A model generated the notes under the pieces. The model searched no databases, had not been told where the DNA came from, and was given only the letters and a program-made list of their open reading frames with translations. A stretch of DNA of 64,000 bases. It comes from Candidatus Kerfeldbacteria bacterium (GTDB taxonomy: Bacteria > Patescibacteriota > Patescibacteriia > UBA10025 > JAHIVO01). Numbering within the stretch: the first letter of the stretch is position 1; every line of letters begins with the position of its first letter. Positions 11,285 to 55,026 of this stretch are shown one piece after another. The position numbers were made by a program, and so were the translations under genes. Location of the stretch: assembly GCA_047946875.1 (NCBI GenBank), contig CP181398.1, positions 143,154 through 207,153 of the forward strand, in the 5' to 3' direction.

Positions 11285-11359
11285 TTGACATGGATGTCTA
11301 TTCATGATATTTTGGTATATAAATAAAAACATAAATTGAACTTAAAAAAAGGATAAAAA
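11285..11359 (+). promoter_or_regulatory. Promoter/5'UTR module P1 (75-bp repeat copy 1)
   Basis: TTGACA, then a 17-bp spacer, then TG-n-TATTTT, then a conserved AT-rich leader ending in an RBS GGA. About 90% identical to 11609..11686. Confidence 0.6.
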
Positions 11360-11584: not shown

Positions 11585-11608
11585 GTAAAACAAAAAATTA
11601 CAAAAGGA

Positions 11609-11686
11609 TTGACATAGACGTTTATCTATGATATTTTGGTATATAAATAAAAACATAAATTGTACGTAAAAAAAAGGAGAAAAACG
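11609..11686 (+). promoter_or_regulatory. Promoter/5'UTR module P2 (75-bp repeat copy 2)
   Basis: TTGACAtagacgtttatctatgatattttggtatataaataaaaacataaattgtacgtaaaaaaaaGGAGaaaaacgATG, a near-duplicate of P1. Confidence 0.6.
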
Positions 11687-12034: not shown

Positions 12035-12049
12035 ATCTTTTATCTAAAA

Positions 12050-12077
12050 CCTCCAATTTTTACTGGAGGTTTTTTTA
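12050..12077 (+). terminator. Intrinsic terminator
   Basis: CCTCCA-atttttac-TGGAGG hairpin followed by T7. Confidence 0.75.
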
Positions 12078-12102
12078 TATTTGAAAATAAGTATGTATAA
12101 AT
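12054..12102. repeat. Direct repeat DR-a (about 48 bp) flanking the metallopeptidase gene
   Basis: caatttttactggaggtttttttatatttgaaaataagtatgtataaa matches 14142..14190 (caaatttttactggaggtttttttatatgttataataagtatatatgaa). Confidence 0.6.
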
Positions 12103-14015: not shown

Positions 14016-14141
14016 ATTGCTATAATTTAATATAATATTTTATCACTTCATTATTATACGCTAATATTACGTTAAAATCAAAAAACCCAAATTTAAAGGC
14101 TTATCAAAAAGATATAGATTATTTAGAGAATTATTAAATCT

Positions 14142-14190
14142 CAAATTTTTACTGGAGGTTTTTTTATATGTTATAATAAGTATATATGAA
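14142..14190. repeat. Direct repeat DR-b (partner of 12054..12102)
   Basis: See DR-a. Copy b lacks the left arm of the terminator hairpin and includes the ATG of the downstream HD gene. Confidence 0.6.
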
Positions 14191-31394: not shown

Positions 31395-31465
31395 ATTAAT
31401 TCAATGCGGGATCGTCTAATGGTAGGACAGCGGCCTCTGAAGCCGCTAATCCTGGTTCGAGTCCA
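31395..31465 (+). tRNA. tRNA-Gln (anticodon CUG)
   Basis: Acceptor stem TGCGGGA/TCCCGCA, D-arm TCTAATGGTAGGA, anticodon stem-loop GCGGC-CUCUGAA-GCCGC with anticodon CUG, T-arm CCTGGTTCGAGTCCAGG, and discriminator G. CCA is not encoded. Confidence 0.85.
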
Positions 31466-31738
31466 GGTCCCGCAGAATTTAAACAGTTAAAATATCATAA
31501 AATAAAAATATAATTAGGGCACTTGCCCTACTAATAATTGGGAGGTCCAGGCTTGCCTGCCGATAGGCAGGTCCCGCAATTTAATCAATAAAAAAAGTCC
31601 TTTAGTATTAAAGAACTTGGATTTTTTTATTTGATTGTTATACTTTTGGATAGCACTATTAGCTATTTTAAAAGCATTATGATAGGGTGTATTTGTAAAG
31701 AGTAATATAGTTACTCTTGTTTTTTTACTATAAATGTT

Positions 31739-33010: not shown

Positions 33011-33087
33011 AAAAACCAGCCAAAAAGAAGAAATAGTTAATGATTTTAAAAACACGTATTGAAATAAGTAGGTGTTTTTAGTTTAAA

Positions 33088-33121
33088 ATAAAAAACCCGG
33101 TGCTTGTAAAAACATCGGGTT
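33088..33121 (-). terminator. Terminator for the 33131..34612 gene (minus strand)
   Basis: ACCCG-atgtttttacaagcac-CGGGT hairpin followed by a U-run on the minus strand. Confidence 0.55.
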
Positions 33122-33130
33122 AACTTTTGA

Positions 33131-34612: not shown

Positions 34613-34883
34613 CAGGTGCGCTCCTTTCCTTTTATGTATATGTTAAAAAGCTATTTTTTTTAATAATATCTGTCATTTAACTATAATATCTATAGTATAG
34701 TTTTATGCAGTATTTAAGCCTAACATAGTCAAAATATGTTAACAAGTTTATTTTAAAGGCATTAATCATTAATTACTTGAAATAATATCGATATAAGTGT
34801 AAGCTAGTATAATTATTTAAATAGCTACTATATTTTAATGGGGGGATTTATATTTCGTTTCCTTTGTTATTGTTAAAAATATT

Positions 34884-35699
34884 ATGAATAGAGAAATATT
34901 AAAATTAAAAAATGTAAATAAAACCTTTTTTGAAGAAGAAAATTTTGAAGTACTAAATGATGTAAGTTTAACTGCAAAAGATGGAGAGTTTGTTTGTATT
35001 TTAGGTCCAAGTGGTTGTGGTAAGACAATTTTATTGTATTTGATTGCTGGATTTTTAACCCCTACTTCAGGAGAAATAACTTTAAACGATAAAATAATTA
35101 CAAAGCCTGGTACTGACAGAATGATGGTCTTTCAAGATTATATATTATTTCCATGGAAAACTGTATACGAAAATATTTTATTTGGACTTTATCACAGTAA
35201 TATTGATGAAGATCAAAAAAAAGAAATAGTGATGAATCATTTGGAGCTTGTTGGATTAACCAAATTTAAAGATTGGTATATTCATAAATTGTCTGGAGGA
35301 ATGCAACAAAAAGTCTCTATCGCTAGGGCTTTAGTCGTCAATCCTGAAATTTTACTTATGGACGAGCCTTTTTCTGCTATTGATTCCCAATATAGAAAAT
35401 TTTTGAGACAGAGTTTAGAGAAAATTTGGCAGCAAAAGAAAAAAACAATTATTTTTGTAACTCATAGTATTACTGAAGCATTAAAATTAGCAGACAAAAT
35501 TTACGTAATGAGTGCTAGACCAGCTGTCGTAAAGGAAATTGTGGATATTAACTTGCCAAGACCTAGAGATAGGTCGAGTAGAGAATTTATAAATTTAGCA
35601 GCAGAATTAAATAATCTAGTTTTAAAAGAGTTCGAATTAATGATGTCCAGTCAATCTACTGAGAAATCATTAGGAGAGCTATTGAAAGGAAATTTTTAG
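34884..35699 (+). CDS. ABC transporter ATP-binding protein (NitT/TauT family)
   Basis: Walker A LGPSGCGKT, signature LSGGMQQKVSIARAL, Walker B ILLMDEPFSAID. Confidence 0.9.
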   Translation: MNREILKLKNVNKTFFEEENFEVLNDVSLTAKDGEFVCILGPSGCGKTILLYLIAGFLTPTSGEITLNDKIITKPGTDRMMVFQDYILFPWKTVYENILFGLYHSNIDEDQKKEIVMNHLELVGLTKFKDWYIHKLSGGMQQKVSIARALVVNPEILLMDEPFSAIDSQYRKFLRQSLEKIWQQKKKTIIFVTHSITEALKLADKIYVMSARPAVVKEIVDINLPRPRDRSSREFINLAAELNNLVLKEFELMMSSQSTEKSLGELLKGNF

Positions 35700-35700
35700 T

Positions 35701-36729
35701 ATGTTTAAAAAAATGTCAAAAGTAGAGCAAGTTTTAATAATTGTAGCTATAATAGTGATTTGTTTTTTATTATTTAGTTCTAATACTACAGAAACCAGAC
35801 CAACTATAAAAATTGGGTATAATAGTCAAAGTGTAAACTATGGTCCAATGATGATTGGTATAGAAAAAGGATATTTTGAGAATGATGACTACAATATTGA
35901 AGTAGTAGCATTAAAGTCAGGAAAAGATATCAGACAAGGCGCGGCTACTGGTCAGTTGGACTTAGGATTATCTAGTGCGTCAAATTTTTTCACTATTATT
36001 GCGGCCGATGCGCCAGTAAAAATTATTGCTCCTGTTGCAGTTTCTAATACATTGTTATTCGTAAGGCCTGACGATGGTATTGAAACTTTTGAAGATTTAA
36101 AAGGTAAAGTAATACAAGGAGGGAAGTCTGGCCAATCTGAATTTGTTTTTGTTAGGGCATTAAAAATTGAAGGTATTGATATTTCGGAGATAGAATTTCT
36201 AGATATTGATAAAGGATTTAGACCATTAGCTTTGATGGAGCAAAAAGTATTAGATGCTATACCTGGCAGTAGTTATAACAAAGGTAATTTTGATGATTTT
36301 GGAATAGCGGTTCATAAAGAATGGGTAGAAAAAGGTTATGGAGATACATCTTGGCCAAATACGGTCATTGCCACTAATACCGAATTTCTTGAAAATAATA
36401 ATGAGGTTATTGAATTTATTCTTGGTGCATTGATTAAATCGCATGAATATTTTGAGAATAATACAGAAGATTCCGCCCAGTTAATAGCAGACCATATAAA
36501 TCGAGAAAGCTTGGAAACAGCAGAATATACAAAAGAAGAGGTACTAATCTCATTGAATAGTGGTCTTAATTTTTCGTTATGGTATGACCCATCACAATTA
36601 GTGGATATGGCGCAAACGTCTTTCGAAAGTGGTGCACTGGAAAAGAATTTGACTCAGGATGATTTATTAGATTTGCGATATGAGGAATTATTAAAGAAAG
36701 CGCAAGATGAAATATACGATCAAGATTAA
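35701..36729 (+). CDS. ABC transporter substrate-binding protein (NMT1/SsuA-like)
   Basis: N-terminal TM/signal anchor. Periplasmic-binding-protein-like fold sits between the ATPase and permease genes. Confidence 0.65.
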   Translation: MFKKMSKVEQVLIIVAIIVICFLLFSSNTTETRPTIKIGYNSQSVNYGPMMIGIEKGYFENDDYNIEVVALKSGKDIRQGAATGQLDLGLSSASNFFTIIAADAPVKIIAPVAVSNTLLFVRPDDGIETFEDLKGKVIQGGKSGQSEFVFVRALKIEGIDISEIEFLDIDKGFRPLALMEQKVLDAIPGSSYNKGNFDDFGIAVHKEWVEKGYGDTSWPNTVIATNTEFLENNNEVIEFILGALIKSHEYFENNTEDSAQLIADHINRESLETAEYTKEEVLISLNSGLNFSLWYDPSQLVDMAQTSFESGALEKNLTQDDLLDLRYEELLKKAQDEIYDQD

Positions 36730-37495
36730 AGACAAATTATTAGCAGCAATTCCATTCGTATTGGTATTAGTCATTTGGTATGTATTTTATTATTTCAAAA
36801 TAACGCCACAGTGGTTAATACCATCTCCGCAAGAAACTTTCGTTACTTTTGTTGAATTGATCAAGGATGGAACAATATTTGAATTAGTGTTGGTCAGCGC
36901 CTCTAATGCTATTCCTGCTTTTTTATTGTCATTAGTAGCTGCAGTATTATTTGGTACTTTGATCGGGATTAATGATACGATTAGAAAAATATGTTTTCCT
37001 TTTTTATCTGCATTTTACCCAGTTCCATCTTTGGCTTGGTTGCCATTGATAATATTGTTTATAGGATTTACTAAAGAAGCAATCTGGTTGGTAATATTTA
37101 TTTCTAGTTTTAGGAAAATAATTTACAATGTTATAGCTGGCGTTAGGAATGTGAAGGGGAGTTGGATTTTGGCCGGTAAGAATTTGGGATTAAGTAAATT
37201 CGAAATTGTGATGAAGATCATTTTGCCCGGAGCTTTCCCCCAGATAATGACAGGAATAAGAATGGGGTTTGGTTCTTCGTGGAGATCATTAATAAGCGCA
37301 GAGATGCTTATTGCTACTGCAGGTGGACTTGGTAAATTTATATGGATGGCACAATGGTTTCTAAGTTTTGAAAAAGTAATTATCGGTATAGCTATCATTG
37401 CATTGATTGGGCTGGGTATTGAGGAATTAGTATTCAAAAAATTGGAGAAAAAAACACTAGAAAAATGGGGTTTTATTAAAGAACAAAGTAGTTAG
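36707..37495 (+). CDS. ABC transporter permease (SsuC/TauC-like)
   Basis: 6 TM helices and the EAA-like loop of binding-protein-dependent permeases. Overlaps the stop of the SBP gene. Confidence 0.85.
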   Translation: MKYTIKIKDKLLAAIPFVLVLVIWYVFYYFKITPQWLIPSPQETFVTFVELIKDGTIFELVLVSASNAIPAFLLSLVAAVLFGTLIGINDTIRKICFPFLSAFYPVPSLAWLPLIILFIGFTKEAIWLVIFISSFRKIIYNVIAGVRNVKGSWILAGKNLGLSKFEIVMKIILPGAFPQIMTGIRMGFGSSWRSLISAEMLIATAGGLGKFIWMAQWFLSFEKVIIGIAIIALIGLGIEELVFKKLEKKTLEKWGFIKEQSS

Positions 37496-37549
37496 TCTAT
37501 ATATTTGCTATTTTTTAGCAAATGGGGCACAATATGGGTAGAATAACAT

Positions 37550-37741
37550 ATGGACGGAACTATTAGGGAAAATATAAACATAGGCCAAGACGTGGCCGTG
37601 GTAAAAAAAGAAGACCAAAGAACCGGACAACTAACCCAAGGTGTTGTTCTGGATATTTTAACTAATTCAGCAAATCATCCTCATGGTATCAAAGTGAGAT
37701 TAGAGTCGGGAATTGTCGGAAGAGTTAAAGAAATTTTATAA
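37550..37741 (+). CDS. Small protein, YwbE/DUF2196-like
   Basis: 63 aa, MDGTIRENINIGQDVAVVKKEDQRTGQLTQGVVLDILTNSANHPHGIKVRLESGIVGRVKEI. The family assignment is recalled and moderately confident. Confidence 0.5.
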   Translation: MDGTIRENINIGQDVAVVKKEDQRTGQLTQGVVLDILTNSANHPHGIKVRLESGIVGRVKEIL

Positions 37742-37799
37742 ATAATTAATTCCCGTAAAGTCAGATTAGGCTTTACTGGAAACTAAATAGAAAAAATAT

Positions 37800-38444
37800 A
37801 TGTACGATAGAAAAGAAATGTTTAGGACTACTTGCAGTGACTGTGGAGATAGCTGTGAAGTACCTTTTAAACCAACTGGTAGTAAGCCAGTATTATGTAG
37901 CTCTTGCTTTGGGCAACAAGGCGGAGGAAGATCAAATGGTCGTGACAATAGATCAGGTGGCGGACGTGGTGGTAGATTCGGTGGTCGTGACAATAGATCT
38001 GGTGGGAGAGATAGAGGTGACCGTGAAATGCATTCAGTAATTTGTGATGACTGTGGTGATAATTGCCAAGTACCATTTCGACCAACTGCTGGTAAACCAA
38101 TTTATTGTGATAAATGTTTTGGTAAGCACAATGATCGTGGTGGAAGAGGTGGAGACAGAAAAGGTGGTGATAGTTTCAGAGAAAAGCGTGGTGGTGGAAA
38201 CAATGATAAAATGGCAAATGAACTTAGTTCTATGAATAGTAAGTTAGATAGACTAATAACTTTGCTTGACCCTTCAGCTAAATCTGAAAAGAAAACTACA
38301 CCAAAAAAAGTTAAAGATGAAACTGTAGCTCCATTAGATCTAGACCTTGATGTTAAGCCAAAAGCAAAGACTGCAAAGAAAACCGTAAAGAAGAAAGCTG
38401 TTGCAAAAAAACCAGCTAAGAAGACCGTTAAGAAAAAAAAGTAA
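37800..38444 (+). CDS. Tandem zinc-ribbon protein with RGG repeats and a Lys-rich histone H1-like tail (putative nucleic-acid binding)
   Basis: Two repeats of CxDCGDxCxVPFxPTxxKPxxCxxCF separated by RGG/RDNRSGG tracts. C-terminus KTAKKTVKKKAVAKKPAKKTVKKKK. Confidence 0.7.
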   Translation: MYDRKEMFRTTCSDCGDSCEVPFKPTGSKPVLCSSCFGQQGGGRSNGRDNRSGGGRGGRFGGRDNRSGGRDRGDREMHSVICDDCGDNCQVPFRPTAGKPIYCDKCFGKHNDRGGRGGDRKGGDSFREKRGGGNNDKMANELSSMNSKLDRLITLLDPSAKSEKKTTPKKVKDETVAPLDLDLDVKPKAKTAKKTVKKKAVAKKPAKKTVKKKK

Positions 38445-38716
38445 ATTAGATAGATTAGAAAAAACTCCGTCCATTAAGTTGGGCGGGGTTTTTGGGTTGA
38501 TTGTTTTATTTGTACTTTCTGACACCAGAAAGTACCAAAGAGTGCTGGGGGTTTCAATGCGCGAGCAGATAAATATAAATTATATATAAAAATGGCTTAG
38601 AGAAACCCCCAGACCCCAACTCATTAACTATTATCTTTATGTATAATTTGATTTTAATAGTAATAAAAAAGTGGGTCTGGAAATTTCCAAACCCACAGTA
38701 TATTCTTTTGACGAGA

Positions 38717-39232
38717 TTATGCCTCGCCGCGCATTTGGGTATTCATATCTACCCATCCTGCTATGAATGTCCGACAGTAGCGCATGAACCGTACTAACCA
38801 CCATCTCTTGAAAGAGGTGATCTTGTAGTATGGTTCGTCAGCCTGATGACCGCGTAGAATTTTTTGATAGAGGGCTTTGACATTCTTGAAAGTGTCACCA
38901 ACTATCATAATTTCAACTACATTTTTCCTACCGATCCTACTTGTTTCTGTAATCAGACGTACAAGGGCGGAAGTGTGTCTAAAATCGTAATGTTCACCAC
39001 AATCAATTATTTCATGATGGTTAACATCAGTGATTCTGATGAAAAATGTTACACGAGAAATTGGCAATGAACAGGGAACTTCGTTTTCTTTGATTTCGAT
39101 GTAGTAATCGAAATTTTCATCTCGTATGAGGGTACTAGTCCCATTTGGGCTGACCAATTTATTATGTCCAAGACCTTCTTGGATGGTCCAGCCATTAGGA
39201 AGCTGATTTGTGTCAATGTACAAACGAAACAT
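38717..39232 (-). CDS. Hypothetical protein (GC-richer than surroundings)
   Basis: 171-aa ORF with no recognised motif. Local GC is elevated. Confidence 0.5.
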   Translation of the reverse strand: MFRLYIDTNQLPNGWTIQEGLGHNKLVSPNGTSTLIRDENFDYYIEIKENEVPCSLPISRVTFFIRITDVNHHEIIDCGEHYDFRHTSALVRLITETSRIGRKNVVEIMIVGDTFKNVKALYQKILRGHQADEPYYKITSFKRWWLVRFMRYCRTFIAGWVDMNTQMRGEA

Positions 39233-39415
39233 TTGATACTCCTTACCTCTTTTGATTGGTTCTGGGTGTTACCCATCATCCATCGCTAGTAGGTAATAAA
39301 AGTGTTGTAAATCATATCTCACGTTGTGTGAAATATAACTATGTATGATAGTACTGTTTAGGCATTTTGTCAAGGGTAGTTTGATTTATATCTTAAAATA
39401 AGAGAAGATAGGACT

Positions 39416-39943
39416 ATGAATAATAACTTACCAACATCAGAAGACTTCCAACATATCAAAGAAAAATTGATTGACTATTTATCTAGGCAGGGTTTCTCAG
39501 AAGCTAAGTTGATCCAGAAAGTTACTGATCTTAAACGTCGTTACCCAAAAACAAAAAGGTATTTTTTTTATACTAAAGAAAATATTATAAAAGTAACAAA
39601 TGAATTGAAAGATTTGGGCTTAATTAACGATCGAAAATATGCTGAGAGTGTATTGCGACAATTGAAAGATAGAAAAGATGGTATTCAGCGAATTCGCCAA
39701 AAAATGTATACTCGACTTATTCCTACAAGTATTATTAATGAAGTATTAGGGGAATGGCAGGATCAGGGCACTAAGCAGGATGATAGTATAATTATTAGAG
39801 ATGCAAAAAGGAAATATGAAAGACTATGTGAAAAGCATCAGGCAAAAAAAGAAAAATATACTATTCAAACAAAGTTATATGCTTTTATTGCTCAGAAAGG
39901 ATATACACCGGATCAGATTAAAGAAATAATTGGAAAGATTTAA
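39416..39943 (+). CDS. recX: RecX-like regulatory protein
   Basis: 175 aa, three-helix repeat pattern with conserved basic/aromatic positions (LSRQGFSE...LKDLGLINDRKYAESV...). Moderate confidence. Confidence 0.5.
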   Translation: MNNNLPTSEDFQHIKEKLIDYLSRQGFSEAKLIQKVTDLKRRYPKTKRYFFYTKENIIKVTNELKDLGLINDRKYAESVLRQLKDRKDGIQRIRQKMYTRLIPTSIINEVLGEWQDQGTKQDDSIIIRDAKRKYERLCEKHQAKKEKYTIQTKLYAFIAQKGYTPDQIKEIIGKI

Positions 39944-40078
39944 TTATATTATTTTTTGTACTTTCTGAGAAAATCTCAGCCTGCCCGCCTCTGGCGGGAC
40001 CCCAAAAGCATAAACTATCTAATAGGGTAATAATTATTAGAATAAAAACGATATGTTGATTTATGATATAATGTATAT

Positions 40079-40255
40079 ATGGGAAAAAATTTTGTAATAT
40101 ATTTTTTTATTTTTGTAGTAGGAATTATTGGTAGTTATATACCATTACTTTGGGGTGATAGTCTTTTTTCTGTTTGGTCAGTCATTTTATCTGGGGTTGG
40201 TGGGTTTGTTGGAATATATGTAGGATTTAAATTAAATAAGATAATGGGTAATTAG
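40079..40255 (+). CDS. Unannotated small membrane protein (58 aa, 2 TM)
   Basis: MGKNFVIYFFIFVVGIIGSYIPLLWGDSLFSVWSVILSGVGGFVGIYVGFKLNKIMGN. Below the ORF-track size cutoff. Confidence 0.4.
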   Translation: MGKNFVIYFFIFVVGIIGSYIPLLWGDSLFSVWSVILSGVGGFVGIYVGFKLNKIMGN

Positions 40256-40268
40256 ATATATTTAACTG

Positions 40269-40790
40269 ATGATATTTAGTAATAACTGTATGAGACTACC
40301 AATAAGAAAACAAGGAAAATATTCTGATAAAAAATCAGATTTATATATAACGGAAGAAAAAGCGCAAAAGTATAAAGAGGAGCTAGATAAGCTCAAAAAA
40401 TTTTTTCAGCCACATACGATTATAGAAGTTAAGAGGCTTGCGGAGATGGGAGATTTTTCTGAGAACGCTGCCTATCAAATGGCTAAGGGGAAATTGCGAG
40501 GTATTAATTCACGAATATTAAAATTAGAGACAGCTATTAATAAAGCTATAGTTATTAAAGTAAGTAGCCAAACTAATATAATTAACATTGGTCATAGGGT
40601 TGTTGTAGAGATGGATGGAGTTAAAAAAGAATTTAAAATACTTGGTTCAGCAGAATCAGATCCAAGTAAAGGAATTATTTCGCACACTTCTCCTCTTGGT
40701 ACAGTTTTGATTGGGAAAAAAGTAAATGATATATTCAATATAGAGATCGCTAATAAAGAAGTTAAGTGTAAAATATTAAAGATTAAATAA
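40269..40790 (+). CDS. greA: Transcription elongation factor GreA
   Basis: N-terminal coiled coil with GDFSENAAYQMAKGK (the GreA GDLSENAEY motif) and a C-terminal FKBP-like domain. The true start may be the ATG at 40290. Confidence 0.85.
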   Translation: MIFSNNCMRLPIRKQGKYSDKKSDLYITEEKAQKYKEELDKLKKFFQPHTIIEVKRLAEMGDFSENAAYQMAKGKLRGINSRILKLETAINKAIVIKVSSQTNIINIGHRVVVEMDGVKKEFKILGSAESDPSKGIISHTSPLGTVLIGKKVNDIFNIEIANKEVKCKILKIK

Positions 40791-40888
40791 ACAAGCTTGT
40801 GAGTTTAGCCACAGGCTTATGTTGATTTTTGGTTGAAATATAGATAAGATAGGGGTATATTTATAAACTAATTAATTGATTCAAAGAT

Positions 40889-43609
40889 ATGAAGAAAAAA
40901 TCTGTATTAAGTATTATAATCATCCTATTGATACTAGGAATATTTGTTCCAATTTTAGTTGGTTTGTCAGCTGATTGGCTTTGGTTTTCAGCTCAGGGGT
41001 TTGCTACCATCTTCAGTACAATATTATTAACCAAGATCATCTTAGGGGTAATAATAGGTTTAGTTACTTTTGGTATTATTTATCTTAATTTTAATATTGC
41101 TCATCGCCGTACCAAAGATCAGCCTGTTATTCTCAGTAATCTACGTCCTGGTTTAGATATATCCAGAATTATATACAGATTATTATTGCCAATATCATTA
41201 GTGATAGGAATATTGACTGGTATAGTTGGATCTGGTTATTGGGAAGTAGTACAACAATTTATTCATAGTGTAAGTTTTGATGCTGTTGATCCTTTGTTTG
41301 GACGTGATATTTCATTTTATTTTTTCACTTTGCCAGCTATAAAGATGTTGATAGGATTTTTGTTTTGGATAACAATTGTCTCAATATTAGGAGCGTCTAT
41401 TCAATATTTGGTTAAAGGATTAATGACTATCAGAGGCAAGAGGATCGAAACAGCTCGCATAGCCAAAAATCATCTTTCTGTTTTGATGTCAATATTTTTC
41501 TTAATTATGGCTGGACATGTATATTTTAATAGCATGACTAATTTATTATATTCTAATACGGGTCCTTTTGTTGGTGCAAATTATTCTGATGTTTATGCTA
41601 CTTTACCTATACAATGGGGACTACTTGGAATTGCTTTGTTTATCGCAATTATTTTTCTTGTTACCCTCCTCAAGCCAATCAAGCGGTTAGTACCTTCTAT
41701 GATAATAATTTATATTTTGGTTTCTATTTTAGGTGGAGTATATGCATCAATAATTCAGAAGACAGTAGTATTACCTAATGAATTAGTAAAAGAGACTCCA
41801 TATATAGAAAGGAATATTTTTGCAACTAGAGCTTCATTTGGATTGGATCAGGTAGTTAAGCGTGAACTAGGTAATGAGGAAACAACATTGACCAGTGAAG
41901 ACATAAAAAATAATGAATTAACTATTAAAAATATTAGGTTGTGGGATAGGAAGCCTCTGTTAGATACTTTTGGTCAGATTCAAGAAATTCGAACTTATTA
42001 TGATTTTGTTTCTATTGATAATGATCGCTATACAATAGATGATGAATATCGTCAGATTATGGTTTCGCCTCGTGAGTTAAATACTGCTAGTTTACCATCT
42101 CGTACTTTTATTAATGAGCGATTGGTCTTCACACACGGTTATGGTTTAGCCTTAGGTCCAGTCAACGAGGTAACCAAAGAAGGTTTACCGTTATTATTTG
42201 TAAAAGATCTACCACCAGTCTCAAGTACTGAATCTATTAGTGTGGATAAGCCAGAGATATATTTCGGGGAGCTTTCTTCGGATTATGTTTTTGTAAATAC
42301 AGGAGCCGATGAATTCAACTATCCATCTGGTGATGAAAACGTATTCACTAATTATGAAGGGGAAGGTGGAGTTGCTCTAGATTCCTTCTTAAAGAAAGCG
42401 CTATTCGCTGTGAATTTAAATTCATTCAAGATATTTCTATCCAATGATATTAATAATGATAGTCGTGTCTTGTTACATAGGAATATTACTGATCGAGTAG
42501 AAAAAGTAATGCCATTCCTAGAATACGATGGTGATCCTTATCTTGTTATTACTGATGATGGGGGATTGAAGTGGATTTATGATGCTTATACTATTAGCAA
42601 CGATTATCCTTATGCTAATTCCGTTACAGCGATTACTACCAATAGTGAAGTTACTTCAGCACTCTATACAACCAAGATTAATTATATTCGTAATTCAGTA
42701 AAAGTTGTGATTGATGCTTATAGTGGTGAGATGAAGTTCTATATAGCTAATGAGCAGGATCCAATTATTCAAACTTACGCAAATATTTTTCCTGATACTT
42801 TCGAATCTTTGGATACTATGTCTGATGATCTTAGATCGCATATTCGCTATCCAGAAGATATTTTCAAATATCAGACAGAGATTTATTCTACTTATCATAT
42901 GGAACAACCTCAGATTTTTTATAACAAGGAAGATAAATGGGAAGTGCCACGTATTAGTGAGGATCGAGCCGATCCAATGATGCGTCATATGATTATGAAG
43001 TTGCCGGCTGAGGAACAAGAAGAGTTTATCTTGATGCTACCTTATACTCCTCGTAGCAAAGACAATTTGGCAGCTTGGATGGTAGCTAGGTCTGATGGAA
43101 ATAACTATGGCGAGTTGGTTGCTTATAGCTTCCCCAAGCAGAAATTGATTTTTGGTCCGAAACAGATAGTTAATAGGATTAATCAAGATGCTGATATTTC
43201 TAGGCAGATATCTCTTTGGGATCAACGTGGGTCAGAAGTTAACCACGGTAATCTATTGGTTATTCCTATCGAAGAATCATTGATTTATGTACAGCCATTA
43301 TACTTGAGAGCAGAAGGTGGTAAGATCCCAGAATTGAAACGAGTAATAGTAGCTTATGAAAATCAGATAGCTATGGCTGAGACTCTTGGTGGAGCGCTGG
43401 ATATTATTTTTAGTGGCGTCGTCGCAGCACCGACTACTGATGATACTATTGATACTTCAGTGGATACGGAAGTAGTTACATCAGCTGATCTTATTATCCA
43501 AGCCAATACTCATTACCAAGCAGCTATAAATGCGCAACAGCGTGGTGACTGGGCGACTTATGGTCGTGAGATAGAAGCTTTGGGAAATGTGTTGGATAAA
43601 TTGAAATAA
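40889..43609 (+). CDS. UPF0182-family large membrane protein
   Basis: 906 aa. N-terminal region of about 7 TM helices followed by a large extracytoplasmic domain. The size and topology match UPF0182. Confidence 0.6.
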   Translation: MKKKSVLSIIIILLILGIFVPILVGLSADWLWFSAQGFATIFSTILLTKIILGVIIGLVTFGIIYLNFNIAHRRTKDQPVILSNLRPGLDISRIIYRLLLPISLVIGILTGIVGSGYWEVVQQFIHSVSFDAVDPLFGRDISFYFFTLPAIKMLIGFLFWITIVSILGASIQYLVKGLMTIRGKRIETARIAKNHLSVLMSIFFLIMAGHVYFNSMTNLLYSNTGPFVGANYSDVYATLPIQWGLLGIALFIAIIFLVTLLKPIKRLVPSMIIIYILVSILGGVYASIIQKTVVLPNELVKETPYIERNIFATRASFGLDQVVKRELGNEETTLTSEDIKNNELTIKNIRLWDRKPLLDTFGQIQEIRTYYDFVSIDNDRYTIDDEYRQIMVSPRELNTASLPSRTFINERLVFTHGYGLALGPVNEVTKEGLPLLFVKDLPPVSSTESISVDKPEIYFGELSSDYVFVNTGADEFNYPSGDENVFTNYEGEGGVALDSFLKKALFAVNLNSFKIFLSNDINNDSRVLLHRNITDRVEKVMPFLEYDGDPYLVITDDGGLKWIYDAYTISNDYPYANSVTAITTNSEVTSALYTTKINYIRNSVKVVIDAYSGEMKFYIANEQDPIIQTYANIFPDTFESLDTMSDDLRSHIRYPEDIFKYQTEIYSTYHMEQPQIFYNKEDKWEVPRISEDRADPMMRHMIMKLPAEEQEEFILMLPYTPRSKDNLAAWMVARSDGNNYGELVAYSFPKQKLIFGPKQIVNRINQDADISRQISLWDQRGSEVNHGNLLVIPIEESLIYVQPLYLRAEGGKIPELKRVIVAYENQIAMAETLGGALDIIFSGVVAAPTTDDTIDTSVDTEVVTSADLIIQANTHYQAAINAQQRGDWATYGREIEALGNVLDKLK

Positions 43610-43665
43610 TAGAATAGTTTTAGATAAAAAAGCTTGTGAGTTTAGTCACAAGCTTAGGTCGATAT

Positions 43666-44115
43666 TTATATAGCACGAATGGTCGAACTGGCTAGGGGAG
43701 TGATAATACGGTTATTGTAAACCGTAAATTTTTCCCCAATTCTTCGGTGTTTCAAATCATCAGTGATTCGTAGTGCGACTACATACATAAAATCTTTGTC
43801 ACCAGGTTGGTGATGAATGACATTTGTATATCCACCGGAAAGTTGTTGGTGGACAGTATAGTGTCCATCCATCAGATCAGCTATGATAGTCGACTGGACG
43901 AAAAGGGGATACCCTTCATGCGTCAGTGATGTAGCGCCGTCTGCACCAGGGACAACTGAGTTGGAAAGTATGAAAATACCGCCAAAGACGTAGATAAAAC
44001 ATAATGCGATTAGGCATTTGTCGAATTTCGTGAACATTGCTATTGCCTCGCTTTCTTTTGTTTTTTGTTTGGAATGTGCAATATACAAATATACCCCATA
44101 CATGGGTATTGTCAA
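43666..44115 (-). CDS. Hypothetical membrane-anchored protein
   Basis: 149 aa with one TM (LIALCFIYVFGGIFILS). Confidence 0.5.
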   Translation of the reverse strand: MTIPMYGVYLYIAHSKQKTKESEAIAMFTKFDKCLIALCFIYVFGGIFILSNSVVPGADGATSLTHEGYPLFVQSTIIADLMDGHYTVHQQLSGGYTNVIHHQPGDKDFMYVVALRITDDLKHRRIGEKFTVYNNRIITPLASSTIRAI

Positions 44116-44165
44116 TCCTGTTTTGAAGGGTAAAAACTAATTACCTCATTTGTTATAATCAATCC

Positions 44166-44190
44166 ATATGAATGGAATTTTTAGGTAATT
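44166..44190. repeat. Partial copy of the truB 5' end (t0)
   Basis: atATGAATGGAATTTTTaggtaat. 16 nt match the truB start ATGAATGGAATTTTTGGTAT. Confidence 0.4.
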
Positions 44191-44210
44191 AGATATGGTA
44201 TACTTTAATC

Positions 44211-45242
44211 ATGAATCCACAAGAATATTTAGAAAATAGAATAAAAGACTGTACGAAATACAAACTTAGTGAAGCAGATGAGAAGTTTATAAAAGATAAT
44301 TCTTTGAGAGAGTTTCTTTTTAAACAGATGACACGAAAAAAATTTAGACGATACAAGCTTACAGATCTGACGAAAGAAAAGATTAATGAAGCGCTTGATT
44401 ATTGTATGTCTGACAACAAACCAATTATTTTTCGTTTATGGTTTGGTGGTTATAAATTATGGCGTTATCCGACTACCCCAGAAGTTGAATGGGCTGAATT
44501 TTTTGTGTTAGCACATTATTGTGAGTTTTTGGCTCCATTGATAGCTACTTATAAACCCGGAATAAAATTGTTATTTACTTCTGATGATGTTTTTGTAGAA
44601 AGATTGAATAATATTCCCAAGTCAGATACGGATGCTTATTATAATTCCTTTCAAAAATTATTAGATGAATTTAGAAAGTATTTCCCTAAAAATTTTGAGG
44701 CAGATATGATTAGACATAGCGCATTATATGATTCAGAAAAAGAATTTGAAGTAGATTTTACTGAACAGGTTACTATAGCTAAGAAAACTTGGAAGAGTAG
44801 TCGAACGCTTGAACAGATAGCTTCTAAATTTCAAATATCAAAGATGAATATCAAGTGGGATGGTGTGGAAGATCTAACTAAATTATCGGAAGAAGATAAG
44901 CAAAAAAAGATTGAACAAAGTATTATCTATCATGATGCGTTGGTCCAAATGCCGAAGATACGAGCTTGGGGTTTTACACCAGATAAAATAGCTATTTCTA
45001 ATAATCCTTTTCCTGGAGGAATTGCCATTGGTGCAACCAAAAATTCTATTGTACGTTTTTGGGTAGGGACTGGTGTTTTGGAAACAAAAGATGATACTTA
45101 TGCAGATCGTATTTTTTCTATCCAACAATATGAAGATAGTAAAGATATATCTTGTCAGGAAATAAAAGTTGATTTTATTCCATTGAAAAATTTTTCTAGT
45201 GTTAAACTATATAATCAAAAATTTGAATTTGCTAATAAATAA
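44211..45242 (+). CDS. Hypothetical protein
   Basis: 343-aa ORF bracketed by truB-start copies t0 and t1. Confidence 0.6.
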   Translation: MNPQEYLENRIKDCTKYKLSEADEKFIKDNSLREFLFKQMTRKKFRRYKLTDLTKEKINEALDYCMSDNKPIIFRLWFGGYKLWRYPTTPEVEWAEFFVLAHYCEFLAPLIATYKPGIKLLFTSDDVFVERLNNIPKSDTDAYYNSFQKLLDEFRKYFPKNFEADMIRHSALYDSEKEFEVDFTEQVTIAKKTWKSSRTLEQIASKFQISKMNIKWDGVEDLTKLSEEDKQKKIEQSIIYHDALVQMPKIRAWGFTPDKIAISNNPFPGGIAIGATKNSIVRFWVGTGVLETKDDTYADRIFSIQQYEDSKDISCQEIKVDFIPLKNFSSVKLYNQKFEFANK

Positions 45243-45256
45243 TTACATTTAGAATT

Positions 45257-45331
45257 ATGAATGGAATTTTTGGTATCAACAAATAGGTGGGGCCTACTTC
45301 GCATGATATTATAGATCAGTTGCGTTGAAAG
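45257..45331. repeat. 75-nt duplicate of the truB 5' end (t1), carrying an in-frame stop
   Basis: tATGAATGGAATTTTTGGTATCAACAAAtAGGTGGGGCCTACTTCGCATGATATTATAGATCAgTTGCGTtGAAAG versus the genuine truB start at 46476..46551. There are 3 mismatches, one of which makes AAA-TAG. Confidence 0.8.
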
Positions 45332-45401
45332 GAATGGGTGATTTTTCTAACTAGGGGATGGTTGACAATTGGTTGACAATAGTATATACTGTAGTTGACA
45401 A

Positions 45402-46475
45402 TTGGTTTACAATGAAAATATGATAACTAAGGAAAAAATATTAAAAATTGCTAAAGAAAAGGGAAAAGTTGTTTCATCTGATTTATCAGTGCAGTTTTCT
45501 GTTTCGCGCCAGTATTTAAATCGTTTAATAAAAGATCTTGTTGATACTAATAAACTCATAAAATTAGGCGTAACGCGAAAAGCTTTTTATGTACTTCCAG
45601 AATATGTAGAGGCACATCAAGAAATGTTGCCAGTTCGGTATGTAAAGTTATTTAAGAATAAAGGACTTGAAGAGCATAAGGTGCTTAATCAAATTGAACA
45701 AATGTTTCCGATATTAAAACAACTTCCAGAGAATATACAAAGTATTTTTACATATGCTTTTTCGGAAATGCTTAATAATGCAATTGAGCATTCTAGGTCT
45801 ATTGCAATTGGCGTGGAGGTATCGGTGCTTAAAAATGAACTTTCATTTATTATCCAAGATTCAGGTATTGGGATTTGGCGTAATGTTATGAAGCAACGTG
45901 GCCTTAAATCGGAGATGGAAGCAATTCAGGATATTCTTAAAGGTAAAACAACTACTATGCCAAAATCACATTCCGGTGAAGGAATATTTTTTACTTCTAA
46001 AGTGGGAGATATATTTACTCTCGATAGTTTTGGATACCAGCTTATTATTAATAATGAGACACCTGATATATTTGTAAAAAAAGTTAAGAAAATAAAGAGA
46101 GGAACTCATGTATCATTTAAGATGTCTACAAAGTCAACCAGACATTTGAATGAAGTTTTTAAGAAATATACTAACCTGTCTGATAAAAGTGATTATGGAT
46201 TTGATAAAACAGAAGTAATAATAAAGCTTTATGCTATTGGTGGTGTGCATATTTCTCGTTCACAAGCGCGCAGAGTATTAACAGGTTTGGAGAAATTTAA
46301 AGTTATTGTTTTTGACTTTGATAAAGTGTCTACAGTAGGTCAGGCATTTACTGATGAAGTTTTTCGGGTATTTCACCATAAGTATCCAAAAATTAAACTT
46401 GAGGTTGAAAATATGTCTGAGGGAGTTAAGTTTATGGTTGAACGAGCACAAAATGAAGCAAAGTCATTAAGATAA
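45402..46475 (+). CDS. wHTH + HATPase_c-like + DUF4325/STAS-like regulatory protein
   Basis: N-terminal HTH (VSRQYLNRLIKDLVD), an ATP-binding region resembling anti-sigma-factor kinases (AFSEMLNNAIEHS...DSGIGI), and a C-terminal STAS-like domain. Confidence 0.6.
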   Translation: MVYNENMITKEKILKIAKEKGKVVSSDLSVQFSVSRQYLNRLIKDLVDTNKLIKLGVTRKAFYVLPEYVEAHQEMLPVRYVKLFKNKGLEEHKVLNQIEQMFPILKQLPENIQSIFTYAFSEMLNNAIEHSRSIAIGVEVSVLKNELSFIIQDSGIGIWRNVMKQRGLKSEMEAIQDILKGKTTTMPKSHSGEGIFFTSKVGDIFTLDSFGYQLIINNETPDIFVKKVKKIKRGTHVSFKMSTKSTRHLNEVFKKYTNLSDKSDYGFDKTEVIIKLYAIGGVHISRSQARRVLTGLEKFKVIVFDFDKVSTVGQAFTDEVFRVFHHKYPKIKLEVENMSEGVKFMVERAQNEAKSLR

Positions 46476-46476
46476 T

Positions 46477-47118
46477 ATGAATGGAATTTTTGGTATCAAC
46501 AAAAAGGTGGGGCCTACTTCGCATGATATTATAGATCAATTGCGTCGAAAGACAGGCATTAAAAAGATTGGACATGCTGGAACATTGGATCCTTTGGCTA
46601 GTGGTGTTTTGGTCGTGGCGATTGGAAAAGAATTTACTAGGCAGATTGATACTATCGTTAAGACTGAGAAAGAATATATAGCTAAGGTAAAATTTGGTTT
46701 TAATAGTACGACGGATGATGAAGAGGGCGAGAAAGAAGAGATAAAAATAAGCAATGAACCGACTAAAGAAGATATAGAGAAAGTATTACCAAAATTTATT
46801 GGTGAGATTAAACAAATGCCACCGGTATATAGCTCGGTGAAAGTTAGTGGTAAACCTGCTCATCGTCGAGTCAGAAAAGGAGAGGATGTGAAGTTGGGAA
46901 CTCGGGATGTATTTATTAAAAATATTGAGATACTAGATTATCAATGGCCGTATTTAGAAATCAAGATTGTGACTGGACCGGGAGTTTATATTCGTTCTCT
47001 GGCTAGAGATATTGGGAGTGAATTAAAAGTTGGTGGATATTTGAGCGGTTTGATTAGAACAAGAGTTGGGGATTATAATATAGATGATGCGGTGACGGTA
47101 GAGAAGTTTAATGGTTAA
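46477..47118 (+). CDS. truB: tRNA pseudouridine(55) synthase TruB
   Basis: GINKKVGPTSHD...GHAGTLDPLASGVL catalytic Asp motif. Confidence 0.92.
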   Translation: MNGIFGINKKVGPTSHDIIDQLRRKTGIKKIGHAGTLDPLASGVLVVAIGKEFTRQIDTIVKTEKEYIAKVKFGFNSTTDDEEGEKEEIKISNEPTKEDIEKVLPKFIGEIKQMPPVYSSVKVSGKPAHRRVRKGEDVKLGTRDVFIKNIEILDYQWPYLEIKIVTGPGVYIRSLARDIGSELKVGGYLSGLIRTRVGDYNIDDAVTVEKFNG

Positions 47119-47121
47119 TTA

Positions 47122-47184
47122 CTTGTCATGCTGAACTTGTTTCAGTATCTTTATAGACCCTGAAATAAATTCAGGGTGACAAGA
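47122..47184. repeat. GC-rich nested-hairpin intergenic repeat, TTGTCAT-box family, copy C
   Basis: CTTGTCAtgctgaacttgtttcagtatc...accctgaaataaattcagggTGACAAG. Immediately 3' of truB. Confidence 0.6.
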
Positions 47185-47319
47185 GAGAGTATATTTGATT
47201 CTTGGATTCCAGCCTTTAGGCTGTTACATATAAAACCCTAAAGCCTGCCTGCCGGCAGGGGTTAATTCTTTGTTATTATAATAGATGACAGAGGGGGGTG
47301 AATAATATATAATGTAGCT

Positions 47320-48204
47320 ATGTTTTATAGTTATTACTTTATCGTAAATCCAGTGGCTGGTATGGGAAAAAAGTTATCTTTTGTAAGTGAGATAACTTCT
47401 TTTTGTCAAAGGAATTATTTGAACTATAAATTGGTAATGACTCATCGACCAAAAGAAGCTATAGAACTAGCTAGAGAGGCGAGTAAAAAATATGAAGTTA
47501 TTGTAGCGGTTGGAGGAGATGGTACAGTCAATGAAGTGGTTAACGGTATAGCTGATACAGATGCAAAATTGGGGATTATACCTATTGGGTCTGGTAATGA
47601 CTTTGCTAAACAAATGGGTTTGACATATAACTTGAGTAAAGATTTAAGAATATTGATGGATGGTAAACTTAAAACAGTAGATCTAGGCAAAGTGAATGAT
47701 AGACATTACTTTATCAATGGTGTTGGTGTTGGGTTTGATGGAGAAGTAGCTTATCATGTTAGAGATTTTCTGAAATATGCAAAAGGTTTCTCTGGTTATT
47801 TACTTTCAGTATTTAGGACATTAGCTACATATAAATTTCATAAGGTTAAATTTTTTATTGATGGAGAGAAGGTAAAAGAAGAAAAAATATTATTGATAGC
47901 TACATGTAATGGGACTACCTATGGCGGAGGATTCAAAGTAGCTCCTTCAGCCAAAGTTGACGATGGTTTGTTTACCGTATGTTTTGTTAGTAAGATGGGT
48001 AAATTTTATGCGATGAGAAACATTCCGAAGATATTACAGGGGACTCATGTGTCATTACCAGAGGTTAGCATGTATACAGGTAAAAGTGTTAAAATTAAGT
48101 CAGAGAAGGAATTATTCTCACAACTTGATGGAGAGATACTACCGCCGATGAAAGAATTTAGTATGGAGATGGTTCCATCTAAAATTAAAGTAATAAGAAA
48201 ATAA
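47320..48204 (+). CDS. Diacylglycerol kinase catalytic-domain lipid kinase (YegS/DagK family)
   Basis: VAVGGDGTVNEVVNGI and the GSGNDF motif. Confidence 0.85.
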   Translation: MFYSYYFIVNPVAGMGKKLSFVSEITSFCQRNYLNYKLVMTHRPKEAIELAREASKKYEVIVAVGGDGTVNEVVNGIADTDAKLGIIPIGSGNDFAKQMGLTYNLSKDLRILMDGKLKTVDLGKVNDRHYFINGVGVGFDGEVAYHVRDFLKYAKGFSGYLLSVFRTLATYKFHKVKFFIDGEKVKEEKILLIATCNGTTYGGGFKVAPSAKVDDGLFTVCFVSKMGKFYAMRNIPKILQGTHVSLPEVSMYTGKSVKIKSEKELFSQLDGEILPPMKEFSMEMVPSKIKVIRK

Positions 48205-49199
48205 TGACTAAATTTAATATTGAAAATTTTTTTAAAAAGTCCGGCAAAGCCGGATCCGGCTCCGCTGGAAAAAAAACCTGGGGGCAATTAGTTCGCTTTA
48301 TCACTAAGCTCCAGAATATCATGAAAGCGGAAAATAAAGATAGTAAAGGTAAGCTACAAAATAAAATCAATGAAATTAAGTCTGACGAGCCATTTTTCGA
48401 ATATCCTATTGTATATATACCACCAGTTGGAGAGTTGATTTTGGTTGGTGATACGCATGGCGATTCGGAATCTATTAGAGCTATATTGAAACAAGAGAAT
48501 TTTATAGCCAAAGCAGAGGCAGGTAAAAAAGTTTATTTAGTTGTAACTGGTGATTATGCTGATCGCGGAAAAGAGGATGTACAGAATATTGAATTGCTTT
48601 TTATGTTAAAAGAAAAATATCCAAAGTTAGTTTATTTGTTACGCGGAAATCATGAAGAGGCCTCAATGGGTCAGCACTATGGATTGTTTGGGTCTTGTAT
48701 AGAAAAATTCGGTTATGAGAAAGGGCAATTAGTCTTCCAAAGGCTAAATGATTTATTTGAAAAATTACCTGTTGTGGCGGTGACTGGGAATGGGGTGGTA
48801 GCTGTTCATGGTGGCGTACCTATCAGTACTATTAACTCGTTAAAAGAATTAAATGACGAAGATAATCTTACAGATATAAGATGGAATGATCCCACAGAAG
48901 AGATTGATCATTTTGTCTATAACTATAGACGAGGAAGTAATTATCTATATGGTAAAAAAACATTTGATAGTTTTATGAAGGGAATAGGAGCTAACGTTTT
49001 ATTTCGATCACATGAATATGTTGCAAATGGTCATAAAAAATTATTCAATAATAAACTGGTTTCTATTTTTTCTAATGGAGGCGATAGTAAAGAAAGTGGA
49101 TTTGCGGATTTTATATTGCACCCAAAGTATGTAAAAGTAGATCTGAGTAAGCCAATCAAAAAATGGTCAGACAATAATATTATAGAAATTAAGTATTAG
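48204..49199 (+). CDS. PPP-family metallophosphoesterase (Ser/Thr phosphatase / ApaH-like)
   Basis: GDTHGD, GDYADRG and LRGNHE motifs. Has a Gly/Ser-rich N-terminal extension. Confidence 0.85.
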   Translation: MTKFNIENFFKKSGKAGSGSAGKKTWGQLVRFITKLQNIMKAENKDSKGKLQNKINEIKSDEPFFEYPIVYIPPVGELILVGDTHGDSESIRAILKQENFIAKAEAGKKVYLVVTGDYADRGKEDVQNIELLFMLKEKYPKLVYLLRGNHEEASMGQHYGLFGSCIEKFGYEKGQLVFQRLNDLFEKLPVVAVTGNGVVAVHGGVPISTINSLKELNDEDNLTDIRWNDPTEEIDHFVYNYRRGSNYLYGKKTFDSFMKGIGANVLFRSHEYVANGHKKLFNNKLVSIFSNGGDSKESGFADFILHPKYVKVDLSKPIKKWSDNNIIEIKY

Positions 49200-54946: not shown

Positions 54947-55026
54947 ATTGTCATCCTGAACAAAGTGAAGGATCTAATTATAACAAATCAAGGTTAAAGA
55001 TTCTTCGCTACACTCAGAATGACAAG
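54947..55026. repeat. GC-rich nested-hairpin intergenic repeat, TTGTCAT-box family, copy D
   Basis: TTGTCATcctgaacaaagtgaaggatc...ctcagaATGACAAg, located between the convergent purA and GIY-YIG genes. Confidence 0.55.

Follow-up and report, generated by a model that had tools for sequence, protein, structure and literature searches.

In a 64-kb stretch of DNA from Candidatus Kerfeldbacteria (Patescibacteria), called the window here and the reference for all coordinates unless another locus is named, the start of the gene truB occurs three times, and the copies separate two cargo genes, gene 1 and gene 2, that are stacked upstream of the intact truB. The reading of these copies as scars left at the junctions by gene insertion with long target duplication is well supported. 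We further infer that integration was guided by homology, of the Campbell or ends-in type, and we rate the full account, scars together with homologous ends-in recombination, as about evenly balanced between right and wrong. In the tiny genomes of Patescibacteria recognisable mobile elements are few, and gene gain is poorly understood; the truB locus and its parallels point to a recurrent, recombinase-free addition of single genes at gene boundaries that leaves the neighbouring gene unbroken.

Three copies of the truB start

A repeat search of the window returned a 76-nt direct repeat (96% identity, 3 mismatches) that pairs 45256-45331, copy B, with 46476-46551, copy C, and begins 1 nt 5' of the truB ATG. 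An earlier reading made from the letters alone (the sequence-only reading) had reported this repeat correctly except for coordinates that were off by one. Copy C is the functional copy, being the first 75 nt of the intact truB, and copy B is an orphan that spans nt -1 to +75 of that gene. The first 28 nt of the truB repeat have two exact occurrences in the window, versus none in 100 shuffles. The third and shorter copy that had been claimed, copy A (44166-44187), is likewise real: it matches the truB start exactly over 17 nt (44166-44182) and over 22 nt with a 1-nt insertion, as ATATGAATGGAATTTTT(A)GGTA. The 17-nt segment ATATGAATGGAATTTTT forms a three-member repeat family at 44166, 45255 and 46475, in which copy B carries T at the first position, and the 15-mer ATGAATGGAATTTTT is found three times (44168, 45257 and 46477) against 0.08 expected from shuffles. 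All three copies lie on the plus strand.

Both orphan copies have early stops. Copy A is frameshifted by its 1-nt insertion into a 6-codon mini open reading frame (ORF), MNGIFR* (44168-44188), and copy B encodes the mini-ORF MNGIFGINK*. With respect to truB, copy B differs by A>T at position 28, which converts codon 10 from AAG to TAG (45284-45286), by A>G at position 63, which is synonymous and the same state as in the relative L045 (L numbers denote the loci compared with the window), and by C>T at position 70, which converts codon 24 from CGA to TGA (45326-45328). The first of these nonsense changes had been recognized before and the second had been missed. Stop-creating substitutions make up 8 of the 225 possible ones in these 75 nt, and two nonsense changes among three have a post hoc P of 0.004. 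The early stops in copies A and B may reflect selection against translating orphan TruB N-termini, or chance.

The truB gene is present on at least three contigs with the same neighbouring genes, and the gene order is common to independent assemblies. The proteins of gene 1, gene 2 and truB have consecutive NCBI accessions (XOU94614-6), each being found on four contigs, the longest of 1.31 Mb. The window was assigned to contig SWBW01001817.1 of assembly GCA_008633325.1.

Relatives of truB from genome and metagenome contigs are all at <=66% identity and share neighbours in L022 alone; a variable cassette number, which the sequence-only reading had named as a check, was not found among them, and an exact truB look-up returned the same gene arrangement only. 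In L022 the order is dnaX, tRNA-Gln(ctg), truB, a diacylglycerol-kinase-family gene and IMPDH, with neither gene 1 nor gene 2, and its truB, at 62% identity, is too distant for this locus to serve as an empty-site reference. tRNA-Gln and truB are directly adjacent there (5887-6000), versus 15 kb apart in the window (31405-46476), where greA, UPF0182 and a recX-like gene lie in between. As a separate observation, a metallophosphoesterase gene (48204-49199) that stands between the diacylglycerol-kinase-family gene and IMPDH in the window is absent from L022.

A congener found via gene 2, L045 (Logan SRR7042394_438), is far closer, with 84-86% DNA identity to the window over the gene 2, truB, kinase-family, metallophosphoesterase and IMPDH genes, and with an identical gene 2-TAA-T-ATG-truB junction. 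Homology between L045 and the window starts exactly at 45344, 12 nt after copy B, and further upstream L045 has an unrelated gene without a homologue in the window. Given the shared junction, the joining of gene 2 to truB predates the window's copy B, or was exchanged between both lineages. Copy B and the window's truB have five to six derived states in common with respect to L045, and just 3 positions distinguish copy B from copy C, as against about 19 expected of a neutral orphan copy that dates back to the window/L045 split (Poisson P = 7.5e-6). By these sequence counts, copy B is much younger than the gene 2-truB junction. A simple history of serial tandem addition, as the sequence-only reading had it, does not accommodate a junction that L045 already has, since the 440 nt of sequence upstream of the module there contain neither copy B nor gene 1. 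We also considered that the insertion of gene 2 itself made copy B in the window lineage, and rejected it as the whole story since L045 shares the junction and copy B is too young.

The gene 2 module and its flanking repeats

Judged by its DNA conservation, gene 2 is demonstrably part of a mobile, self-contained promoter-plus-gene module of about 1.1 kb that moves horizontally among Patescibacteria. The module (45344-46481, plus strand), delimited by DNA conservation and a promoter scan, comprises promoter, operator-like boxes, gene 2 and the TAA-T-ATGAA junction, and the block that begins with the first operator box and ends about 5 nt beyond the stop codon (45356/45362-46481) retains 66-78% identity in loci that are otherwise unrelated. 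The predicted promoter, TTGACA-17-TATACT, lies at 45362-45390 and is surrounded by four operator-like TTGACAAT/TTTACAAT boxes (45362-69, 45373-80, 45395-402 and 45406-13). Homologues of gene 2 number more than 6,400, and the 120 best, which are 66-88% identical to it, come from bins named for many Patescibacteria classes plus a few other phyla. Homologues of gene 2 often neighbour defence genes, including HinfI, N6/N4 methyltransferases, PD-(D/E)XK nuclease, HsdR, GmrSD, Fic and SocA/Panacea.

Imperfect direct repeats (35-116 nt) of a neighbouring gene, mostly of its end, flank gene 2 in 5 of 9 distinct loci. Besides the truB 5' end in the window (76 nt), the repeated sequences are the priA 3' end in L048 (35-63 nt), the 3' end of a PD-(D/E)XK nuclease gene in L049/L052 (73-86 nt), pieces of hsdR in L059/L060, and a terminator together with a DEAD-helicase 3' end in L064/L065 (about 116 nt, 97-100% identity). 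In two of the four loci without repeats, the upstream sequence available is under 450 nt. Of the control genes from Patescibacteria loci, roughly 15 of 400 or fewer are bracketed by such repeats (Fisher p = 2e-5 versus gene 2), and about 10 comparable repeat pairs were found in about 416 kb of Patescibacteria loci not selected via gene 2. The idea of a single attachment site is at odds with a module that resides at truB 5', priA 3', PD-(D/E)XK nuclease 3', DEAD-helicase 3' and hsdR, and a fixed repeat length with observed lengths from 17-22 nt up to 116 nt. Neither does the truB 5' end behave as a general hotspot: among 31 other Patescibacteria truB loci, a long truB-end duplicate is present in one, at the 3' end, and the 5' end is duplicated in none. 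In L064, the orphan repeat copy is interrupted by a 208-nt element of the GCAATGACGG type (3142-3349), a side observation.

The closest parallel to the layout of the window is L048, where four copies of the priA 3' end (376-438, 3347-3370, 4830-4892 and 6081-6143) divide three cargo blocks: one holds a 483-aa gene and a RimK-like gene, another a 415-aa gene, and the third, which adjoins the intact priA, the gene 2 module. L048 has the window's architecture plus one more unit. In this regard, the sequence-only description of cargo genes that are stacked at one boundary and separated by copies of it holds for the window and extends to L048, with gene 2 as a mobile member.

In IMG/VR, 39 viral or prophage contigs (L069-L107) carry relatives of gene 2, all of them distant (31-44% identity), and flanking repeats were found in none of 24 distant relatives from viral contigs; plasmid and phage collections yielded no relatives of gene 2. 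A published catalogue (PMC5499597) lists DUF4325 genes whose transcription is coupled to that of a VapC-like PIN group. The gene 2 family at large may be part of conflict or mobile-element systems.

Relative to L045, the window shows a synonymous divergence (pS) of 0.32 for gene 2 and 0.31 for truB codons 1-25, as compared with 0.55 for the rest of truB plus the diacylglycerol-kinase-family gene (47320-48204); the difference has p = 3e-7 for gene 2. These values fit a unit of promoter, gene 2 and truB stub that would have a more recent common ancestor than its surroundings.

Proposed homology-guided integration and its alternatives

Insertion with long target duplication was described for restriction-modification (R-M) gene complexes (Nobusato et al. 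2000; Furuta, Abe & Kobayashi 2010, PMC2853133). It was defined in Helicobacter and later found in several bacteria, mostly naturally transformable ones, and it leaves direct repeats of >30 bp and variable length, often overlapping the end of a neighbouring gene, with no mobility genes; the mechanism is unexplained, and the cycle that has been put forward leads from insertion through repeat-mediated amplification to release (PMC2853133). The window locus matches this known, mechanistically unexplained class, so that the scar type is not the undescribed one suspected by the sequence-only reading. The likeness comprises one to few cargo genes, long direct repeats of variable length, overlap with a gene end, and no transposase or integrase found. 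With 76 nt at 96% identity, the repeat of gene 2 exceeds the 30 bp of Furuta et al. (2010), whereas gene 1 by itself would fall short of it since the outer pair A/B shares just 17-22 nt. As in that class, no mobile-element gene was found by Pfam in the scanned ORFs of the window, and the cargo folds are SpoIIAB/GHKL and PvcA. The class of 2010 is, however, defined partly by pairs of filled and empty genomes, and here the upstream sequence of L045 differs and L022 is too distant. Its cargo consists of R-M genes, whereas neither gene 1 nor gene 2 has an R-M domain; homologues of gene 2 elsewhere do neighbour R-M or defence genes (HinfI, N6/N4 methyltransferase, HsdR, GmrSD, PD-(D/E)XK). Further differences are the Patescibacteria host, the stacked cargo with three to four boundary copies, and the fossil stubs of earlier targets.

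We propose the following model for the truB boundary. The original truB start would have stood at the position of copy A, behind an extended -10 element, TGTTATAAT (P_A, 44151-44159, plus strand), which was read from the sequence 8 nt 5' of the copy A ATG. Since an ATG 8 nt after an extended -10 box is a leaderless-mRNA geometry, P_A and the copy A ATG are plausibly the original leaderless promoter and start of truB. In line with this notion, the TGTTATAAT-N8-ATG spacing is also found at the start of an HD-domain gene (14186), and 14 of 60 window genes have a -10-like (TATAAT-like) hexamer 5-10 nt before the start codon, with a Shine-Dalgarno-like motif in just 12 of 60, which suggests that leaderless mRNAs are common in this organism. 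Incoming DNA would have carried a short stub of the target gene's end, either as a circle excised via recombination between repeats or as DNA taken up from a close relative, with no recombinase encoded in cis. Host homologous ends-in (Campbell-type) recombination would then integrate this DNA, duplicating the stub on both sides of the cargo and leaving the gene intact; truB stayed intact because the boundary was duplicated at each insertion. Successive events at one boundary would pile up cargo genes, a module moving to a new site would retain its old stub as a fossil, and the orphan copies would later have gained their early stops, by frameshift in A and by TAG and TGA in B. Excision and re-integration via the repeats would keep copies B and C similar.

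The precedent for this geometry is Campbell-type single-crossover integration, as used with suicide plasmids, in which the homologous fragment is duplicated on both sides of the insert, a fragment with a gene end leaves one intact copy, and recombination between the repeats regenerates the circle. The truB locus has the same geometry, whereas the circle, the replicon and the delivery vehicle are hypothetical here, and copy A is short for RecA.

Other loci provide clues to the mechanism. In L004, L048 and L049 the orphan copies retain the reading frame and the stop codon of the intact copies, and 50% of the orphan/intact differences are synonymous versus 21% expected (p = 2e-4). The kept frame and stop and the mostly synonymous changes suggest that these orphan copies are the ends of once-functional alleles and not decayed in-situ duplicates; the window's copies B and C, with 3 differing sites, are uninformative in this regard. 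In L048 the three orphan copies carry one allele (…DHVPDTWIID…), and the end of the resident priA differs (…SHVPVGWIID…). L004, from a Kuenenbacteria bin, has the terminal 93 nt of truB twice (6884-6975 and 9969-10061, 88% identity), on either side of a 3-kb insert that encodes an 864-aa membrane protein and a 138-aa protein. The two copies are identical over a central core of about 60 nt (56 nt by BLAST), and all mismatches lie to the sides of it. The scar type seen at truB is hence not limited to gene 2, as this insert and further repeats of the window illustrate.

L049 and L052 are 99.9% identical over 3.5 kb, and their orphan-repeat regions differ at 5 positions. Just after the orphan repeat, a 271-nt segment in L049 (4176-4446) is replaced by a 982-nt segment with a 312-aa gene in L052 (3534-4515), and the swapped segment begins inside the orphan PD-(D/E)XK-end repeat, directly after the gene 2 module. 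The alignment suggests that strains have swapped cargo here, with the repeat as the anchor. Additionally, fragments of other genes follow the gene 2 stop codon: an hsdR 5' fragment fused to an internal hsdR piece at a TAATATG junction in L059 (4058-4134), a frameshifted start of a C5 DNA methyltransferase (…VTFVDLFAGTGGF) at a TAATATG junction in L046 (6058-6110), and a degenerate hsdR start at a degenerate TAATATA junction in L049 (4058-4102). These 5' fragments look like fossil stubs of earlier neighbours.

Several points weigh against integration by homologous ends-in recombination at truB. Copy A, at 17-22 nt, is short for RecA-type recombination and suits microhomology or a recombinase core better. 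Copies B and C are too alike to separate a donor allele from an in-situ duplicate, and with two nonsense changes out of three they show the pattern of decay and not of allelic difference. The allele-like orphan copies of other loci could also go back to a duplication in situ, after which the intact gene was replaced by another allele. None of the truB relatives found has an empty site, with P_A directly ahead of one sole truB start, or a varying cassette number, so the insertion at truB is deduced and not seen, and the circular form and the uptake route are hypothetical elements of the model. As to the absence of copy B from the 440 nt of L045 available upstream, either B was lost in L045, or the module re-integrated recently in the window lineage, or B and C were homogenised by gene conversion. 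The pS difference is not significant for truB codons 1-25 by themselves (p = 0.11), and the low pS of gene 2 could stem from constraint instead of transfer.

A bolder extension of the ends-in model, which we put forward tentatively and regard as rather improbable, is that the gene 2 module is a recombinase-free selfish cassette, spread by DNA uptake and homology-guided ends-in integration in Patescibacteria and some other uncultured lineages. At each residence the module would gain the first or last 40-120 nt of the adjoining gene (the hsdR', methyltransferase' and truB stubs), the acquired stub would serve as the address for the next genome, and the DNA-binding GHKL/STAS protein might promote its own retention or insertion. 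If this were true, the thousands of metagenomic copies would offer a route to the mechanism of insertion with long target duplication.

Among the explanations that dispense with homologous integration, local duplication in situ deserves to be weighed first, unlikely as we consider it to be. The gene 2/truB junction would have been duplicated once or twice by template switching, unequal sister-chromatid exchange or staggered-break repair, with no incoming stub, and a later replacement or illegitimate insertion would have placed gene 1 between the copies. The 96% identity of B and C and the youth of B relative to the junction shared with L045 are in keeping with such a course, as are the 97-100% identical repeats of L064. 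Moreover, the B/C match extends about 10 nt upstream into the gene 2 3' end beside C (CATTTAGAAT versus CATTAAGATAA; by BLAST, weakly, to 45246), a hint that the template for B was a gene 2-truB junction already in place; an extension of 10 nt is, however, weak in AT-rich sequence. Duplication in situ leaves unexplained the different cargo between successive copies in the window and in L048, the allele-like, synonymous-rich divergence of orphan copies elsewhere, and the enrichment of such repeats at gene 2.

A site-specific recombinase acting in trans seems to us quite improbable. The truB start would here be an attachment (att) core at which an integrase or Xer-type enzyme, with its gene in another part of the genome, added integrase-less cassettes serially, in the manner of cis-mobilizable elements (CIMEs) or integrative mobile elements exploiting Xer (IMEX). 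CIMEs beside integrative conjugative or mobilizable elements in streptococci, and IMEX at dif, are integrase-less elements in tandem, separated by att copies; they depend on a defined recombinase and one conserved core. The likeness lies in stacked elements at one boundary, separated by boundary copies and without a recombinase of their own. The exact 17-nt segment ATATGAATGGAATTTTT common to the three junctions (with T first in copy B) and the shortness of copy A suit a recombination core better than homologous recombination, the tandem arrays of the window and L048 resemble accretion at tRNA or gene-end att sites, and L004, with an identical core between diverged arms, is reminiscent of attL/attR.

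On the other hand, no recombinase, transposase or integrase was found by Pfam in about 45 ORFs of the 64-kb window, nor among the Pfam matches for 36-57 kb, and the cargo models have no recombinase fold; the recombinase-served attachment point of the sequence-only reading finds no backing in these searches. In contrast to CIME accretion, no recombinase was found in or beside the array in the window searched, and the module occupies unrelated targets. These number at least five and share no core, so that each genome would require a differently specific enzyme. The repeats show no dyad symmetry and no dif- or attC-like structure, no attC-like match was found in 43-48 kb, and the repeat lengths run from 17 to 116 nt.

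Homology-facilitated illegitimate recombination in natural transformation reportedly anchors foreign DNA by one short homologous stretch of a related gene and joins the other side at microhomology, the classical outcome being said to be an insertion with a deletion in the recipient. It would account for allele-like orphan copies and for the recurrent TAATATGAA junction, but it gives no direct duplication of the anchor, unlike the truB locus. Integron cassettes are defined by intI, attI and attC palindromes; no integrase and no attC-like match were found in the parts of the window scanned, and the boundaries here are direct copies of coding sequence. Insertion sequences and DNA transposons have inverted repeats, a transposase and a short duplication of fixed length; in contrast, the duplications here measure 17-22 and 76 nt, and 35-116 nt elsewhere, and a repeat search detected no terminal inverted repeats at the module ends and no inverted repeat at the junctions. 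Transposon, integron and IMEX readings were rejected, as no terminal inverted repeats, attC, dif or recombinase were found.

Finally, an assembly artefact, named as fatal by the sequence-only reading, or a chance or functional likeness of translation-start regions is highly improbable even though the source is a metagenome-assembled genome and the shortest copy has just 17 nt in an AT-rich genome, because several contigs carry the same neighbourhood with consecutive accessions, the 76-nt repeat is shorter than a sequencing read and contains 3 mismatches, shuffles gave 0 (28-mer) and 0.08 (15-mer) against 2 and 3 observed, and the same pattern is present in unrelated assemblies.

The scar type was reported more than 20 years ago for R-M systems and its mechanism was never explained. 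What is new here is a small gene 2 module that repeatedly bears the scar and lets comparative genomics test the mechanism. As the module has thousands of copies in many contexts, it constitutes a natural data set of repeat lengths, crossovers, stubs and filled/empty pairs, which could discriminate among ends-in integration, a trans-acting recombinase and template switching in replication. In terms of annotation, orphan fragments of gene starts or gene ends, such as A and B, risk being miscalled as pseudogenes or small ORFs.

Genes and further repeats of the window

Gene 1 (44211-45242, plus strand, 343 aa) is the distal cargo and a conserved Patescibacteria protein. A putative extended -10-like element, TGGTATACT, lies at 44196-44204 on the same strand, 6 nt 5' of its ATG. 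The protein has a weak Pfam match to DIT1_PvcA, and its AlphaFold2 model (predicted local distance difference test, pLDDT, 92) matches PIsnA/PvcA in Foldseek with E 2e-9 and TM 0.6-0.67; from this model, the fold is assigned with confidence to PvcA/IsnA, the isonitrile synthases. There are 79 homologues of gene 1, and relatives at 84% (P0002), 64% and 60% identity adjoin an FKBP gene, not truB. Since the FKBP gene stands beside gene 1 in all three relatives examined, gene 1 probably moved to truB from elsewhere.

Gene 2 (45420-46475, plus strand, 351 aa), the proximal cargo, combines a winged helix-turn-helix N-terminus, a SpoIIAB-like GHKL ATPase/kinase domain and a STAS-like DUF4325 domain. 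The coordinates given for both cargo genes in the sequence-only reading are correct as ORFs, but the start of gene 2 is most likely the ATG at 45420 and not the TTG at 45402, as the resulting 351 aa are like the gene 2 homologues. Pfam matches are to DUF4325/STAS-like and HATPase, and the N-terminus is a winged helix. The best fold matches of the AlphaFold2 model (pLDDT 81) in the PDB are the anti-sigma kinase SpoIIAB and other GHKL ATPases; the fold search revealed no nuclease or recombinase fold in gene 2 and no recombinase fold in gene 1. A phmmer match of residues 73-165 to the lambda integrase core-binding domain (2oxo, E 0.13) was set aside as probably chance, because the fold search assigns SpoIIAB/GHKL to these residues.

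The intact truB (46477-47118, plus strand, 213 aa; Pfam TruB_N, E 6e-46) is co-oriented with gene 2, whose stop codon lies 1 nt from the truB ATG. A terminator scan found no terminator-like site in 44200-47200, hence none between gene 2 and truB. Searches of gene 1 and gene 2 against PADLOC, NCBIfam and PHROGs gave nothing firm, with a weak DrmA match (E 1e-3) and a PHROG of unknown function, and a PDB sequence search gave no significant match. An Rfam scan of 43-48 kb had no match, and the literature on DUF4325 and on gene insertion in the Candidate Phyla Radiation yielded nothing about the gene 2 module.

The window has other direct repeats around genes. One pair, 12015-12101 and 14105-14190 (about 55-90 nt, 87%), brackets a 615-aa gene on the minus strand (12168-14015) and covers the 3' end of the gene at 11660-12034, a terminator hairpin, an extended -10 (TGTTATAAT) and the start codon (ATG, 14186) of the HD-domain gene. 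In the upstream copy of this pair the -10 and the start have decayed, and the scar is of the type seen at truB. A 48-nt pair at 40783-40830 and 43620-43667 (85%), made up of the greA stop and a hairpin, flanks the UPF0182 gene. A small zinc-ribbon ORF is flanked by 77 nt of promoter and 5' untranslated region (11284-11360 versus 11608-11684, 86%), and two small genes by 39 nt with the hairpin GAGCGCACCCAGGGACGGATGCGCTC (9579-9617 versus 11150-11188, 92%). A palindromic element, TTGTCATCCTGAACTTGATTCAGGATCT, that resembles repetitive extragenic palindromes or miniature inverted-repeat transposable elements is present at 5525-5552, 47123-47150 (immediately 3' of truB) and 54948-54975. Elsewhere in the window, an 834-aa protein (25365-27869), with 73% identity in L022, has weak matches to the type IV secretion coupling protein (VirD4/TrwB-like).

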